From: Copranaerobaculum intestinale | GTDB taxonomy: Bacteria; Bacillota_I; Bacilli_A; Erysipelotrichales; Erysipelotrichaceae | Reading direction: 5' to 3' | Assembly: GCF_009831105.1 (NCBI RefSeq) | Contig: NZ_WUUQ01000002.1 | Coordinates: 660,001-692,000, forward strand | DNA length: 32,000 nucleotides | Part shown: positions 27,341 to 32,000 of the stretch, one piece after another | Position numbering within the stretch: position 1 is the stretch's first letter | Layout of the letters: each line of letters begins with the position of its first letter | Translations under genes and position numbers: made by a program | Notes under the pieces: model-generated | The model's input: the letters and a program-made list of their open reading frames with translations, nothing else | Told to the model about the DNA's origin: nothing | Database searches by the model: none

Positions 27341-28336
27341 TTATTTGTTCAGCTGGCGTTTTTTTGTATAGAAACAGATAAAATCCAAAATAATCTGAGC
27401 TGCATACAGCGATGTTTGACCAGCATGATCGTATGGCGGAGATACCTCGGATAGATCAAATCCAACAACCTGTCCCTTACCGACAACAGCATAGATAAGA
27501 TCGCTTACTTCTTCATACAGCAAGCCGCCTGGCTGTGGCGATCCCGTACCCGGACAAAGTGACGGATCTAATCCGTCAATATCCACTGTGATGTAATAGT
27601 ATTTTGCTTCTGGTATTTTATTGATAATTGCTTCCATGCCTTCTTTGCGCAGCTGCGGCGTAGTGATCAGCGTACTGCCATAGGCTCTTGCTTCTTCAAA
27701 ATCTTCTCTGCCACTGCTGCCGAGTCCTCTTAAACCAATCTGCATCATTTTACCAACATGCTTTAATTCTGAAGCACGGCGCATCGGCGAACTATGCGAA
27801 TACTTGAATTCACCATAGGACTTTGTCCAGTCCAGATGGGCATCAAATTGAATCACGCATATATCCTCATACATGTCGAAGGCACGCATCACCGGAATGG
27901 TTGTCGTATGATCACCGCCGATGACCACCGGTACCGCGCCGGTACTGATAATTTTACGTACCGCCGATTCACAGTTATCAAAGGTTTGTTCATAGCTGCA
28001 CGGAGATACATCAACATCACCGCAGTCGATGATTCGTTCACCCTGATCCATGAAATACATATCCTTCACCGGATCATATAGACCGTATAATCCGTCACAA
28101 TAAATGGTTGATGCTTCTCTTACACCCCTTGGCCCAAATCGCGCGCCGCTCTTTGCGGATGCTCCGATATCATAGGGGAAGCCCAGTATCGCGATATCGT
28201 ATCCTGGTTCCAGCTGATCCAAAGACGGACAGATTTCAGTCTTCATAAAGGATGAAATACCGGTAAAGGGAAGATTAAAAAAATTGCTGGGATTCGTTGT
28301 GAAATTGACGTTGGCATTCTTATTGGAGCTATTCAT
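27341..28336 (-). CDS. speB: Arginase-family ureohydrolase (agmatinase/guanidino-acid hydrolase-like)
   Basis: Mn-ligand motifs GGDHTTT, FDAHLDW and VDIDGLDP. GGAGGAG RBS. The substrate cannot be assigned from sequence, so the symbol is tentative. Confidence 0.85.
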   Translation of the reverse strand: MNSSNKNANVNFTTNPSNFFNLPFTGISSFMKTEICPSLDQLEPGYDIAILGFPYDIGASAKSGARFGPRGVREASTIYCDGLYGLYDPVKDMYFMDQGERIIDCGDVDVSPCSYEQTFDNCESAVRKIISTGAVPVVIGGDHTTTIPVMRAFDMYEDICVIQFDAHLDWTKSYGEFKYSHSSPMRRASELKHVGKMMQIGLRGLGSSGREDFEEARAYGSTLITTPQLRKEGMEAIINKIPEAKYYYITVDIDGLDPSLCPGTGSPQPGGLLYEEVSDLIYAVVGKGQVVGFDLSEVSPPYDHAGQTSLYAAQIILDFICFYTKKRQLNK

Positions 28337-28371
28337 GTTAAACTCCTCCTTCCTAAGCTGATGATAGATAT

Positions 28372-28380
28372 ATTATAACA
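28372..28380 (-). promoter_or_regulatory. Extended -10 element (TGtTATAAT) upstream of the ureohydrolase gene
   Basis: Minus strand TGTTATAAT, 36 nt upstream of the ATG. Weak -35. No terminator is seen between this gene and the upstream 836-aa gene. Confidence 0.45.
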
Positions 28381-28415
28381 GAATTCTAAATATATCTGCT
28401 GGATGTTTTCCGTTA

Positions 28416-30926
28416 TCATTCAGCCATAACCAAATTCATAGCAAGACCCTCGTTTATTTCTTGAAACTCCCAAATAATAGTTTGATTGTTTTTAGGTACA
28501 ACCAACTGTTTCACAAACGGTACACAATTTTCTTCAAGGTATTTTTGTTCCAACGATTTGGTTCCATAGCGCCGAATAAAATAAGTGATGAAGGAGATCA
28601 AAATTCCGGCGATGGTACAAATCCATCCGATCCCCGGCAAAAGCGAAACAAATGCAAAGGAACCGATAATCGTTGGTAAAAATGTACTGATGAAAGCAAA
28701 CCCGATGGTTGCTACCATCGCAATGCCATTTACAATTCCATTGATGACATTGAAAGCAGTAAGCCATCCTGCATAACCATATTTTGCCACATCGCTGACG
28801 ATATCGCACACACATACAGAAAAAGCAAAAGCACTCATTAAACCACCGCAAAATTTCATCATTTTCGGCATTTCTTCCGAACTTTTCATAACACGTTCCC
28901 AAAACCCTTTACCTTCATTTGTCATAACATCAAGCTCTTGACTTTTCAGCGCCTGCGTGCCTTTTACAGAACCGGAACTGCTGCTGGAAAATTCTGACAT
29001 CGCTTCGATGGATGTGCTATTCTTACACCAATTTCCATAAGCCTCATATCCGTTATTGAATATATCAACGATGCTGTATGAGAAGCTGAGGACTGCCGAT
29101 GCCTGTTGAGAACTGCTCATTTCATCCCAGTTAACAAAGGTACTGATACTATTCCATATCATAAGACCCTGCGTAAGCATCAGCGCAGCGACACGAATTC
29201 CAATTCTAATCTTCGGGTGAGTTTTATAGAAATCATCAAGGCATTGAAATATTGTTCGATCCATTTCACCGGACACCCATATTTCAAACTCCAGTAAGGC
29301 TGCGGCAATATACGGGTAATAGTCTTCAGGTACCGTGATGATCTTATTTTTAAGCGCCTCGTCAATTGCATTCTTCAGATCCTGAAGCTCCGGCGTTAAA
29401 GTCTGCTCACCATAAATCCGTTTGATCAACTGCTTTGCCGCTAGCCCATAATATTGGTGGCGCTGATCTTCATTCATAACAATATCGGTCATGGTATCGG
29501 TCATGGTTTTATTCATCACGCAGCGATTCAATAAATGATAATATAGATCACTGCCCAGTGAAGTCAGATAGACCGTCGGCTCATCATGATCACTCATGCA
29601 TAATGGACTGTTTTGAGGATTCACCATTTGTATACACTTATCCGGATACAGATAATTCAATAATATAACAAGATGCTGTAACCGCGATTGAATATCATGC
29701 GTGTACTCATCCAGCATTAGTCTGGCCAGTTCTTCATATAAAGCATAATCATGTACCTGAAACGCCCATTTCTTAGCTTCTGATAAATACGGTTTAATTT
29801 CAGGAATGCTTTGAAAATATACCATTCCATATAAGCGATCAGTCAGTTTTTGATAAGCCGGTTCATTACAAAAAGAAGTGGCCTCATGGCCATTATAATA
29901 TCCATCCAATCGTTCTTTATGGAATTCTATATCTTTAATCAAATAAGAGTATTCATAATCTCCAGCCGCCAAAATAGAGCTAAGACAGGCTTCATAATAA
30001 TGACCGACCAAAAGTGTTTTCACATCCGGATTCGCATCTACAAAATCAACCATTTCCTGTGTGATATCCGAACCGATATGGGGGCGGTCGGGATTTCCGA
30101 TATATGTTATCTGATCATCATCGATGTAGTAAAGCATTAAATTATGCAAATAGCTGGAAAAGTTTGTATTAACTGCTTCAACATTTGGCATCGGCACCAT
30201 AAATAGACTTTCTACATAAAGCGGCGTCTTTTCGTTTAGATATGTAATCCGCTGGTCGTCAAATACTGTGGGCATAGCTTCCCCTGCCGAATGAATCTGC
30301 CTGCGGATTTGCCGCTCCCGCTCACTCATCACATAGCTTCCGCTTACGCGCATACTCGCTGATTCGATAAAGCTGGCTTCCTCCGAATGCCAGGCACTGC
30401 CATACATTGACATAAGGTCATCAGCAAGTGTAACATCATAGAACGAAAAGTTTTGATATCCTTCTAATCCATCAAACATCGTTCCCTGAATATGAAGGCT
30501 ATTCCCTTTCCCCTCACAAAGATGGCTATATGCTAGATTTACATTCGAATGAAGCAAGTGCAGCTCCATCGTTTCAATGAGGCTTCCGTTCTCCATGCGG
30601 CTGCCAAGACATAATTCATATTCTTGTTGCTGCTGATCATCTGTAAATGTCATGATATATTTAGAATCACATGATGCTTTAAATACATGAACTCCGGTTT
30701 GATCGAGAAGTACACCACCCAACAAACGTGAATGATTCAAAGATACAATCCGTCCACAGCGCTGATATGCCGGCTGATCCCAATAGAGGGAGTCCTCCTT
30801 GACGATCGTTGATACCGGCATTTGATCGATATAAACCGTCTGATTGATACATGCCATTGCGAATGGAACATGCTCATCATCGGAATAGATCGTTAGGTCA
30901 TAGCATACATTCGAATTCCATTTCAT
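28416..30926 (-). CDS. Orphan 836-aa protein: large soluble N-terminal region plus C-terminal glycine-rich multi-helix hydrophobic module
   Basis: Uninterrupted ORF. No signal peptide (MKWNSNVCYDLTIYSDDEHV). No Walker, HExxH or other catalytic signature that I recognise. Hydrophobic segments are IRIGIRVAALMLTQGLMIWNSISTFV and then FCGGLMSAFAFSVCVCDIV...GWLTAFNVINGIVNGIAMVATIGFAFISTFLPTIIGSFAFVSLLPGIGWICTIAGILISFITYF. The ATG at 30926 lies 1 nt after the upstream stop (TGAtATG). Confidence 0.8.
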   Translation of the reverse strand: MKWNSNVCYDLTIYSDDEHVPFAMACINQTVYIDQMPVSTIVKEDSLYWDQPAYQRCGRIVSLNHSRLLGGVLLDQTGVHVFKASCDSKYIMTFTDDQQQQEYELCLGSRMENGSLIETMELHLLHSNVNLAYSHLCEGKGNSLHIQGTMFDGLEGYQNFSFYDVTLADDLMSMYGSAWHSEEASFIESASMRVSGSYVMSERERQIRRQIHSAGEAMPTVFDDQRITYLNEKTPLYVESLFMVPMPNVEAVNTNFSSYLHNLMLYYIDDDQITYIGNPDRPHIGSDITQEMVDFVDANPDVKTLLVGHYYEACLSSILAAGDYEYSYLIKDIEFHKERLDGYYNGHEATSFCNEPAYQKLTDRLYGMVYFQSIPEIKPYLSEAKKWAFQVHDYALYEELARLMLDEYTHDIQSRLQHLVILLNYLYPDKCIQMVNPQNSPLCMSDHDEPTVYLTSLGSDLYYHLLNRCVMNKTMTDTMTDIVMNEDQRHQYYGLAAKQLIKRIYGEQTLTPELQDLKNAIDEALKNKIITVPEDYYPYIAAALLEFEIWVSGEMDRTIFQCLDDFYKTHPKIRIGIRVAALMLTQGLMIWNSISTFVNWDEMSSSQQASAVLSFSYSIVDIFNNGYEAYGNWCKNSTSIEAMSEFSSSSSGSVKGTQALKSQELDVMTNEGKGFWERVMKSSEEMPKMMKFCGGLMSAFAFSVCVCDIVSDVAKYGYAGWLTAFNVINGIVNGIAMVATIGFAFISTFLPTIIGSFAFVSLLPGIGWICTIAGILISFITYFIRRYGTKSLEQKYLEENCVPFVKQLVVPKNNQTIIWEFQEINEGLAMNLVMAE

Positions 30927-30927
30927 A

Positions 30928-31956
30928 TCAGTTTTTCCCTTCCATTTCCACAAGTATTTCTGTGATCATATGCTTAGCGGATTCACCAAGCAGAGCTTCC
31001 CATAACGAAACCTGAGTGAGCAGCTTATCAATGACCGCATGTCGTTCAGCTTCTGCCAGATCAGCGATCCTTCGCTTCAAATAAGCAAGTGTAAGCTGTG
31101 GATATGCCAGCAGGCAGGGATAACCATTTGCATAGTAAGAATGAAAGCCGTCATAAACATGAAGATCGTAGCAACAGGCATGCTTTGTATTTTCTGTGAT
31201 GTGTATCCGTTCTACCACAACTTCATGCGGTTTCCCTTGATCATCAAGCTTGATAATACGATCACCTATTTTCAAAGTCTTTACTTGAAATTCCGGACAG
31301 ATCATATTGGTGGCTGCCGGCTGTGGTGCACACCAGCCCCGCTGGGTCATGATCGCATGATCCAAAGACATAAACGGAATATCCTCATTGACCGCGTATA
31401 GAAATGCAACCTGATGATTTTGGACCAATTCATCAGAAAGATAGGACTCACTTCCCTGTACATTTAATATCATATCATTCTTGCTTGTGCATTCGATTGG
31501 CACACATGTCCCATTCTTCAATCGTATTAGCGTACCAGCCAGCACACAGCCACCGCTTTCCTTTTTGTAACAGCCGTTGGCATCACCCGTGCTTTTGACC
31601 CACGCAACTGCTGCTTCACCATAAAAATGTTCATCATAGGCTCGCCTCGTGATAACTTCACCGCCGCCATATGCTTGATAAGCATCATGATGAACCGTTC
31701 TACAGCTTTCACTGTAGCGCTTGACATCTTGATTCATGGTTTTATAGATTGACATATCTTTTCCCAATTCATTGACAAATAATGTTGGCCAGTCATAATC
31801 CTTCAGATATTCATCCAGTTGATATACTTTACAAAAATTCGCATCGAACATTTTCCAATTTTCAAGAACTCGATCAGCAGCTGCATCATTGTGACAGTGC
31901 AGCATCAATAATAACACTTTAAAACGCCATATTTTGGTAATATCCGATTTATACAT
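30928..31956 (-). CDS. Hint (Hedgehog/intein-like) autoprocessing-domain protein; N-terminus uncertain
   Basis: Residues about 137-283 carry Hint blocks: A = GG|CVLAGTLIRLKNG, B = SLDH, LKIGDRII, and F/G = YDLHVYDGFHSYYANGYP. The ATG at 31956 has no SD, and the frame stays open to base 32000. Confidence 0.75.
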   Translation of the reverse strand: MYKSDITKIWRFKVLLLMLHCHNDAAADRVLENWKMFDANFCKVYQLDEYLKDYDWPTLFVNELGKDMSIYKTMNQDVKRYSESCRTVHHDAYQAYGGGEVITRRAYDEHFYGEAAVAWVKSTGDANGCYKKESGGCVLAGTLIRLKNGTCVPIECTSKNDMILNVQGSESYLSDELVQNHQVAFLYAVNEDIPFMSLDHAIMTQRGWCAPQPAATNMICPEFQVKTLKIGDRIIKLDDQGKPHEVVVERIHITENTKHACCYDLHVYDGFHSYYANGYPCLLAYPQLTLAYLKRRIADLAEAERHAVIDKLLTQVSLWEALLGESAKHMITEILVEMEGKN

Positions 31957-31959
31957 ATT

Positions 31960-31986
31960 AAAAAATAAACGCTGCGAGATTGCAGC
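31960..31986 (-). terminator. Terminator-like hairpin immediately upstream of the Hint gene ATG
   Basis: Minus strand GCTGC-AATCTC-GCAGC followed by GTTTATTTTTTAAT then ATG. A +1-frame TGA (31990-31988) precedes it, consistent with the end of an upstream gene. The stem is only 5 bp. Confidence 0.4.
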
Positions 31987-32000
31987 CTCAAACGACGGAT

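Follow-up and report, generated by a model that had tools for sequence, protein, structure and literature searches.

A bacterial Hint domain without the terminal His-Asn pair, with a conserved helical tail and a linked membrane protein, predicted to retain N-terminal thioester chemistry

The minus strand of a 32,000-nucleotide stretch of the Copranaerobaculum intestinale genome (contig NZ_WUUQ01000002.1, positions 660,001 to 692,000; hereafter the window) contains the 3' part of a gene for a three-part protein and, directly downstream, a gene for a large membrane protein. On the evidence of profile comparisons and a predicted structure, window positions 31108-31548 encode a true Hint domain. 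The best reading of this domain, and one that we consider probable from its sequence, is that it performs N-terminal thioester chemistry or cleavage and does not splice. Residue numbers are those of the full-length protein; Cys282 and His345 correspond to C137 and H200 of an initial annotation made from the window sequence.

Evidence for the Hint fold

The Hint domain spans Cys282-Leu428 (31108..31548, minus strand), as defined by hhalign alignment to bacterial intein-like (BIL) units ending in His-Asn and by Foldseek, which matches it to BIL domains and inteins. For the 487-residue protein, AlphaFold2 gave a model with a mean predicted local distance difference test (pLDDT) score of 87.5. When this model was compared with the PDB by Foldseek, the top 21 matches were all Hint-fold proteins with a probability of 1.00. 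The best was Tetrahymena BIL2 (6y75; E 2e-7, target template-modelling (TM) score 0.77), and the other top matches included the Clostridium thermocellum BIL (2lwy), the gp41-1, Prp8, GyrA and DnaB inteins, and a Vint domain.

Profile searches place the domain in the same group. A profile of five homologues, run against 1.84 billion cluster representatives, retrieved 2111 proteins at E<=1e-3. Among them are tandem-domain proteins that score above the Pfam gathering thresholds for Hint, Vint, Hom_end_hint, Hint_2, PT-HINT and Intein_splicing, and whose domains follow the canonical unit pattern SCF(V/I)AGT ... TAEHP ... TYYANGYLVHNK. When a 31-sequence family profile was aligned with these canonical C...TAEH...HN BIL-like units, hhalign gave a probability of 99.9% and E 2.9e-32 over residues 279-426, and each BIL-like unit scored about 60 bits in hmmsearch. 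These reference units are themselves profile-search matches, called A-type-like by their features and not by the original BIL-A alignment. Together with the Foldseek matches, the alignment bears out the Hint-type identity given in the initial annotation.

The route proposed there for checking this identity, the Pfam models Hint_2, PT-HINT and Hom_end_hint, failed on the window protein. In Pfam, no Hint-clan model matched it at E<=10, and the sole match was a sub-threshold one to AXH (E 0.022), with none in NCBIfam; Hom_end_hint reached only E 0.0026, in two of five close homologues. Because the Pfam Hint models miss the window protein, its Hint fold is apparent by structural and profile-profile methods only. 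A phmmer search of the single sequence against the PDB gave no match.

Ataxin-1 AXH also appears among marginal PDB sequence matches to the Hint region. AXH identity was considered and rejected, the match being cross-talk with Hint domains. The Pfam AXH model (PF08517; ataxin-1/HBP1) repeatedly picks up Hint domains, and its score on tandem BIL proteins reaches 126 bits. As judged from these sequence matches, a bacterial protein that matches AXH may in fact contain a Hint domain.

The junction and the N-terminal catalytic residues

The predicted scissile junction is Gly280-Gly281|Cys282, encoded by the codons GGT GGC TGT (31546..31554, minus strand) and followed directly by VLAGTLIRLKNG, which forms block A. 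Block B is Ser342-Leu-Asp-His345 (SLDH; 31357..31368, minus strand) and aligns to the TAEH of BIL-like units, and the sequence of blocks F/G, YDLHVYDGFHSYYANGYPC, lies downstream of it. All of these elements had been read correctly in the initial annotation, as had the presence of the residues for an N-S acyl shift. The Gly281|Cys282 pair aligns with the G|C of both the VMA1 intein and Sonic hedgehog.

Conservation was counted across 117 tail-type relatives, representatives that are mutually <=50% identical. The junction cysteine (Cys1) is kept in 116 of the 117, as is the block-B histidine (116/117); the block-B Ser/Thr is present in 108/117 and Thr287 in 109/117. Glycine occupies the -1 position in 99/117 tail-type relatives, versus 9/54 tandem units. 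The rest of the Hint domain has diverged to ~20-25% identity across the family.

Loss of His-Asn at the C-terminal end

Alignments by hmmsearch and hhalign run ungapped through '...YYANGY'. Canonical units then continue L-V-H-N-K, and the window protein continues P-C-L-L-A-Y-P. In the segment Leu427-Leu428-Ala429 (31105..31113, minus strand), Leu427 and Leu428 occupy the canonical His and Asn positions, and Ala429 the position at which relatives carry an Asn. The alignment therefore ends the domain at Leu428, coordinate 31108. The initial annotation had closed the domain at '...YPC' and remarked on the missing HN[CST]; the pair is indeed missing, and the domain end lies two residues further on. 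Cys426, the cysteine of 'YPC', was rejected as a +1 or second nucleophile: this position is Cys in 47/117 relatives and Val in 57/117.

His-Asn is absent from the domain end throughout the tail-bearing family. Instead, an N-Y-P-x-x-T motif begins one residue past the canonical Asn, with Asn in 100/117, Tyr430 in 110/117, Pro431 in 116/117 and Thr434 in 113/117. Distant members read ANGYLVHLNYP, which resembles His-Asn plus one inserted residue. The family Asn is replaced by Ala, Ser, Asp, Thr, Gly, Pro or Ile, in split and fused forms. Having been lost several times and being kept in only 100/117, it is much less constrained than Cys1 and the block-B His. As these two residues are near-invariant and the family Asn has been lost repeatedly, the N-terminal chemistry is the strongly selected part of the domain.

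In the window protein, residues 427-431 are L-L-A-Y-P and include no Asn, Gln or Asp able to cyclise. An intein-type C-terminal Asn followed by a +1 Cys, Ser or Thr is also absent, the aligned positions being Leu427, Leu428 and Ala429. With Leu427-Leu428 at the canonical pair and Ala429 at the family Asn, Asn cyclisation, splicing and C-terminal cleavage are impossible in this protein, in agreement with the earlier claim that splicing cannot be completed.

The complete gene and its predicted fragments

The Hint-protein gene lies on the minus strand in a frame that stays open to the window edge, and is thus incomplete within the window: positions 30928..32000 hold codons 132-487 and the TGA stop. 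A complete gene of 487 codons is found on a contig from the same species (L008 8536-9999). The start chosen by the open-reading-frame lister is an internal ATG at 31956 (342 aa), and the true start lies ~390 nt outside the window. Because the gene extends outside the window, size estimates made from the window alone are too small. This applies to the N-terminal part, put at about 136 aa with the proviso that it would be longer if the reading frame extended upstream: the frame does extend, and the size becomes 281 aa. It also applies to the fragments of 15 and 23 kDa expected at that time, for which the full-length gene predicts 32 and 23 kDa (32.2 kDa, 281 aa, and 23.3 kDa, from cleavage at Gly281|Cys282).

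The window protein is identical to WP_160625320.1 (C. intestinale, Erysipelotrichaceae) over the 356 aa available. This record is named 'hypothetical protein' at NCBI and 'Hint domain-containing protein' in UniRef. The nearest database homologue (P0001) is 98% identical and 487 aa long, with 145 extra residues upstream. Comparison of the Hint gene in the window with that on the same-species contig gives 9 synonymous and 4 non-synonymous codon differences, and Cys282, His345 and Ala429 are unchanged in all nine species-level variants.

The cargo domain, the linker and the tail

The part of the N-terminal 'cargo' domain that falls in the window comprises residues 132-281 (31549..31998, minus strand). 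In the AlphaFold2 model this domain is all-alpha to about residue 227, with helices across residues 3-227. It matched no Pfam or NCBIfam family. The conserved positions listed for it are mainly Trp, Tyr, Phe and Gly, and for this reason it does not appear enzyme-like.

A long modelled beta-hairpin (230-257) and a helix (259-271) with a conserved YGE...W motif (31579..31704, minus strand) follow. This element occurs in every family architecture, and its W264 is invariant in the family. In relatives with a different N-terminus, profile matches begin at profile positions 238-290. Residues 272-281 form a flexible polar linker, which varies from ~10 to 35 residues across relatives. The constant unit of the family is hence the hairpin-helix, linker, G|C junction, Hint domain and tail, with a variable upstream part. 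One relative (P0058) consists of the N-domain only and looks like a truncated reading frame that stops before the junction.

The C-terminal tail, residues 429-487 (30931..31107, minus strand), consists of the YP..T motif followed by four short helices (435-485 in the AlphaFold2 model). This conserved helical tail of ~58 aa always accompanies this type of Hint domain, including in relatives encoded in dynamin operons that have no partner gene; it therefore belongs to the Hint domain and not to the partner. By hydropathy the tail is not strongly hydrophobic, and the Hint protein has no N-terminal hydrophobic segment and no signal peptide.

The membrane partner and its linkage to the Hint gene

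The downstream gene (28416..30926, minus strand) encodes an 836-aa protein identical to WP_160625319.1. At the gene junction (30924..30943, minus strand), GGAAGGG (30943-30937) precedes the TGA stop (30930-30928), which is separated by one base from the partner ATG (30926-30924). This one-base gap suggests translational coupling of the Hint gene and its partner. A 1-nt gap between the two genes is also present in L008 and L009, and the other loci mostly have overlapping stop and start codons.

A homologue of the partner lies directly downstream of the Hint gene in 8/8 independent loci checked, from different phyla: a Gram-negative-type metagenome contig (L001), two Desulfovibrionaceae metagenome-assembled genomes (MAGs; L003 and L004), Blautia (L005), and four metagenome contigs (L002, L010, L011 and L013). 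The Hint proteins of these last four contigs include members only 21-27% identical to P0001. In addition, Hint and partner are fused in 33/152 representatives among the matches listed, each giving a single protein of ~1150-1500 aa whose parts run cargo, Hint, tail, partner. Taken together, adjacency in eight loci and 33 fusions strongly support the linkage between Hint protein and partner, and the tie to the downstream membrane protein that had been suspected from the window sequence is upheld.

The AlphaFold model of the partner is of moderate quality (pLDDT 65.5), with a beta-rich region at residues ~1-200, a well-predicted helical region at ~200-430 and a low-confidence helical C-terminal half. 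A hydropathy scan places a hydrophobic C-terminal region of ~3-4 transmembrane helices at residues ~689-785 (28572..28862, minus strand). Judged by consensus sequences of the family, no other part of the partner is as well conserved as this transmembrane region, and most of the fused relatives likewise carry hydrophobic C-terminal segments. No Lys, Cys or Ser is invariant in the partner. It matched nothing in Pfam, NCBIfam or PADLOC, and its model had no significant fold match in the PDB or among viral structures.

Two sub-threshold resemblances of the partner model were noted in Foldseek. One is to NINJ1 (9bia), over ~100 residues with a probability of 1.00 and a TM score of 0.65, yet at E 0.5; it likely falls in the low-confidence transmembrane region and, as helical hairpins match easily, serves as a lead only. 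The other links residues 1-200 (~30330-30926) weakly to the beta-barrel and handle domains of TbpB/hemophilin (E 8e-3 to 3e-2, low TM).

Other family architectures and genomic context

One branch of the family consists of ~920-1010-aa proteins with an unrelated N-terminus of ~700 aa and the same Hint and tail (ANGYPCLLNYP). In both loci of this branch that were examined (L006 266-6627; L007 643-8886), the Hint-tail gene ends, with an overlap, an operon of 2-3 genes for dynamin-family GTPases, and neither locus has a partner gene. These dynamin-operon relatives, of 938-972 aa, come from an Oscillospiraceae MAG and from a metagenome contig on which a Mu-type transposase gene is also found.

The BIL-like units also occur in tandem, head to tail, with 2-7 units per protein (P0008, 1757 aa; P0025, 4119 aa; P0073; P0077; P0092; and others), some of them giant. 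Each tandem unit begins with Cys and finishes with His-Asn-Lys (SCF.AGT...TAEHP...ANGYLVHNK). An Aeromonas caviae reading frame (L014 3863-4573) has a signal-peptide-like start, one BIL-like unit and a Gly/Ser-rich tail. In another protein (P0079, 1060 aa), an N-terminal region that weakly matches the tetraspanin family (E 2.7e-6, below the cut-off) and contains a hydrophobic segment precedes the cargo, Hint and tail. At one divergent locus, the partner is followed ~560 nt downstream by a HipA_C kinase gene (L011 11022-12206; L012 6137-7321); the two contigs share the same gene arrangement and perhaps come from the same organism.

In C. intestinale, the pair is flanked on one side by a gene for pyrimidine-nucleoside phosphorylase (outside the window) and on the other by an arginase-family gene, dacF and the spoIIAA-spoIIAB-sigF operon. 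Positions 1291-27079 of the window are ordinary chromosome: these last genes, together with recA (without an intein), genes for a class A penicillin-binding protein, a yqeH-like GTPase, an M42 peptidase and SAICAR synthetase, a nadD-like gene, and azlCD. The G+C content of the two-gene cassette (window 28001-32000) is 0.40-0.42, versus 0.42-0.47 in the remaining window. This lower value, with the occurrence of the cassette in unrelated phyla with differing flanks, is consistent with horizontal acquisition.

A sporulation role, suggested by the spoIIA neighbourhood, was rejected as relatives occur in Desulfovibrionaceae and in unrelated contexts. A defence-island context was rejected as well, as the flanks vary by locus and consist of housekeeping or envelope genes. 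PADLOC returned no match for the Hint protein, the partner, the fused form or the dynamin-operon form. Among the viral contigs, phage genomes and plasmids searched, just one single BIL unit was found, from Aeromonas. A promoter and terminator scan of the window gave nothing above the shuffled expectation.

Proposed mechanism and alternatives

Thioester formation, cleavage, the location of cleavage and what it controls are proposed here by analogy with established Hint chemistry (PMC4031507). The gene product would be a three-part cytoplasmic protein: a 281-aa cargo ending in a flexible linker and Gly-Gly; the Hint domain (Cys282-Leu428), probably descended from a His-Asn (A-type-like) bacterial intein-like lineage; and the helical tail of ~58 aa. 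Cys282, aided by His345 of SLDH, would attack the carbonyl of Gly281, and the resulting N-S acyl shift would convert the Gly281-Cys282 bond to a thioester. With Leu-Leu in place of His-Asn and Ala in place of the family Asn, neither a succinimide nor C-terminal cleavage nor splicing would be expected to follow. The thioester could then be opened only by a nucleophile from outside, water or a thiol by default, and the 32-kDa cargo would be freed from a 23-kDa fragment containing the Hint domain and tail. This fragment may act together with the 836-aa membrane protein, which is probably co-translated with the Hint protein and, in many relatives, part of the same polypeptide. If it does act with the membrane partner, processing would probably take place at the cytoplasmic face of the membrane, and may control something there.

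Several observations weigh against N-terminal cleavage. The case for it is drawn from conserved residues only, and among these the block-F Asp is moderately conserved (D in 61/117, G in 38/117). The failure of every Pfam Hint-clan model on the window protein counts on the same side, and the near-invariant N-Y-P..T motif could mean that an ancestral C-terminal reaction existed and has since been lost here. The Pfam result, the loss of the C-terminal catalytic pair and the existence of Hint-related folds without processing, together with the cross-match of the ataxin-1 AXH model to the domain, would also suit a non-catalytic Hint domain, which would serve as a scaffold or binding module between cargo and tail with no bond broken. 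We consider this unlikely: Cys1 has been kept in 116/117 relatives, and so has the block-B His, despite ~20-25% identity elsewhere, a pattern that is hard to explain without catalysis. It is highly improbable that the domain still works as a BIL- or intein-like element and cuts itself out, by C-terminal cleavage or by BIL-type splicing of cargo to tail. Its parent lineage, with a His-Asn end and no +1 nucleophile, does so (PMC4031507), and an Asn stands one residue past the canonical site in 100/117 relatives, a few of which have H-x-N (ANGYLVHLNYP). Here, however, L-L-A-Y-P at 427-431 offers nothing to cyclise, and the Hint domain has diverged along with its flanks, unlike a mobile insert. 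The full-length matches of the profile search all contain the Hint domain. A host protein without it did not turn up with 14 'spliced' queries, from which the Hint domain had been removed, in a low-sensitivity search that retrieved only Hint-containing proteins.

Once the Gly281 thioester has formed, a specific nucleophile brought in by the tail or by the partner could also resolve it, in a ligation like that of Hedgehog/Hog or BUBL proteins. Candidate acceptors would be the head group or hydroxyl of a membrane lipid, or else a Lys of the partner or of another protein, and the cargo would become covalently anchored without ATP. The architecture mirrors that of Hog proteins, with variable N-terminal domains, an Asn-less Hint domain and a conserved C-terminal region of ~60 aa (PMC2362128), and in Tetrahymena BUBL, the BIL2 domain that gives the best structural match attaches the ubiquitin-like domain on its N-terminal side to lysines (PMC8616854). 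The more frequent Gly at -1 (99/117, as against 9/54 in tandem BIL units), the flexible linker of ~10-35 residues ahead of the junction and the tethering of the Hint fragment to a membrane protein point the same way. Set against this, no specific nucleophile stood out. The partner is without an invariant Lys, Cys or Ser, and the tail is not strongly hydrophobic by hydropathy. Neither by structure nor by sequence is Hedgehog a close match, and the tail is present without the partner in dynamin operons. Ligation is accordingly a possibility that we do not favour, and hydrolysis or thiolysis appears somewhat more likely than specific transfer. The stronger proposal, that Hint and tail form a bacterial cytoplasmic counterpart of Hog that ligates its cargo, free of ATP, to a membrane lipid or a partner residue and has been reused in dynamin operons, is doubtful. 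N-terminal thioester chemistry or cleavage without splicing thus remains the reading we prefer.

Comparison with known systems

A-type BIL domains end in His-Asn without a +1 nucleophile, and cleave at both ends or splice, according to the summary of Amitai 2003 and Dassa 2004 given in PMC4031507. The initial annotation had cited A-type BILs as a precedent for a missing terminal Asn; as they possess His-Asn, they serve instead as likely ancestors. The closest sequence relatives of the window family are the A-type BIL (2LWY) and the tandem C...TAEH...HNK units (P0008, P0089, P0093 and the Aeromonas L014 reading frame). The N-terminal Cys, the T/S-x-x-H, the LY.IN and GW motifs and the lack of a +1 nucleophile are common to both, and the similarity spans blocks A, B and F and continues, ungapped, into block G (...YYANGY). 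In contrast to A-type BILs, the window protein has Leu-Leu instead of His-Asn. In contrast to the tandem units, its family adds the N/A-Y-P..T motif and the helical tail and has Gly at -1, where the tandem units have mostly Ser; the protein is also predicted to be cytoplasmic with a dedicated membrane partner, and does not occur as a repeat inside a giant or secreted protein.

Hog proteins combine a Hint domain and an SRR/ARR region with diverse N-terminal domains (PMC2362128). The window protein shares with Hedgehog/Hog the Gly|Cys junction, the Cys and T-x-x-H of the thioester step and the absence of a terminal Asn. In architecture only, it also resembles Hog in that a C-terminal region of ~60 aa always accompanies the Hint domain and the N-termini vary. 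It differs in being bacterial and in having no signal peptide, and its similarity to Hedgehog consists of a marginal match to the Sonic hedgehog junction region (E 0.037), with no Hedgehog structure in the top 50 fold matches. The Hedgehog analogy drawn at the outset thus stands for architecture and chemistry, and falls for family membership.

In Tetrahymena BUBL, BIL2 hands its upstream domain to a nucleophile via an N-terminal thioester (PMC8616854). BIL2 (PDB 6Y75/6TMM) is the best structural match (E 2e-7, target TM 0.77) at 15% identity; it retains the terminal Asn (the crystallised mutant is N143A) and has ubiquitin-like domains on its flanks, and the window protein has neither. B-type BIL domains do not resemble inteins in block G, and they uncouple cleavage from splicing (PMC4031507). 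The block G similarity that the window domain keeps up to the His-Asn position argues against membership in this type. Pretoxin-HINT domains (PF07591) of polymorphic toxins, like B-type BILs, are Hint domains used for cleavage uncoupled from splicing (PMC4031507; PMC3482391). The window protein has no PF07591 match, and a 58-aa helical tail follows its Hint domain where a toxin domain would stand.

When the terminal Asn of an intein is mutated to Ala, C-terminal cleavage is blocked and a reactive N-terminal thioester is left. By analogy, the window protein, which lacks a terminal Asn, may resemble these engineered mutants. In contrast to them, it is natural, conserved at species level and accompanied by a partner gene, and its Ala lies one residue past the canonical Asn.

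Significance

In the literature library searched, no paper was found on this family, on Hint domains together with dynamin, or on bacterial ninjurin-like proteins, and no curated model covers the cargo, the tail or the partner. The automatic UniProt name already records a Hint domain, so its bare presence is not new. The finding is best described as a new combination, in which an Asn-less Hint domain derived from BILs is joined by a dedicated tail and by a partner in the membrane.

Hint chemistry underlies inteins, Hedgehog maturation and widely used protein-engineering tools. The family described here is a natural and widespread bacterial form in which strong selection acts on the N-terminal thioester step only, and in which Hint and tail are coupled to a large membrane protein, a sister branch having bacterial dynamins instead. 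If hydrolysis alone occurs, the family would be another self-cleaving BIL variant of modest significance. If cleavage or ligation takes place as proposed, the two genes would form a new membrane-associated system under autoprocessing control, and a tractable bacterial model of Hog-like transfer reactions. If the thioester is resolved by ligation, this would represent an unrecognised bacterial protein-lipidation or conjugation chemistry, and possibly a prokaryotic root of Hog-type processing.

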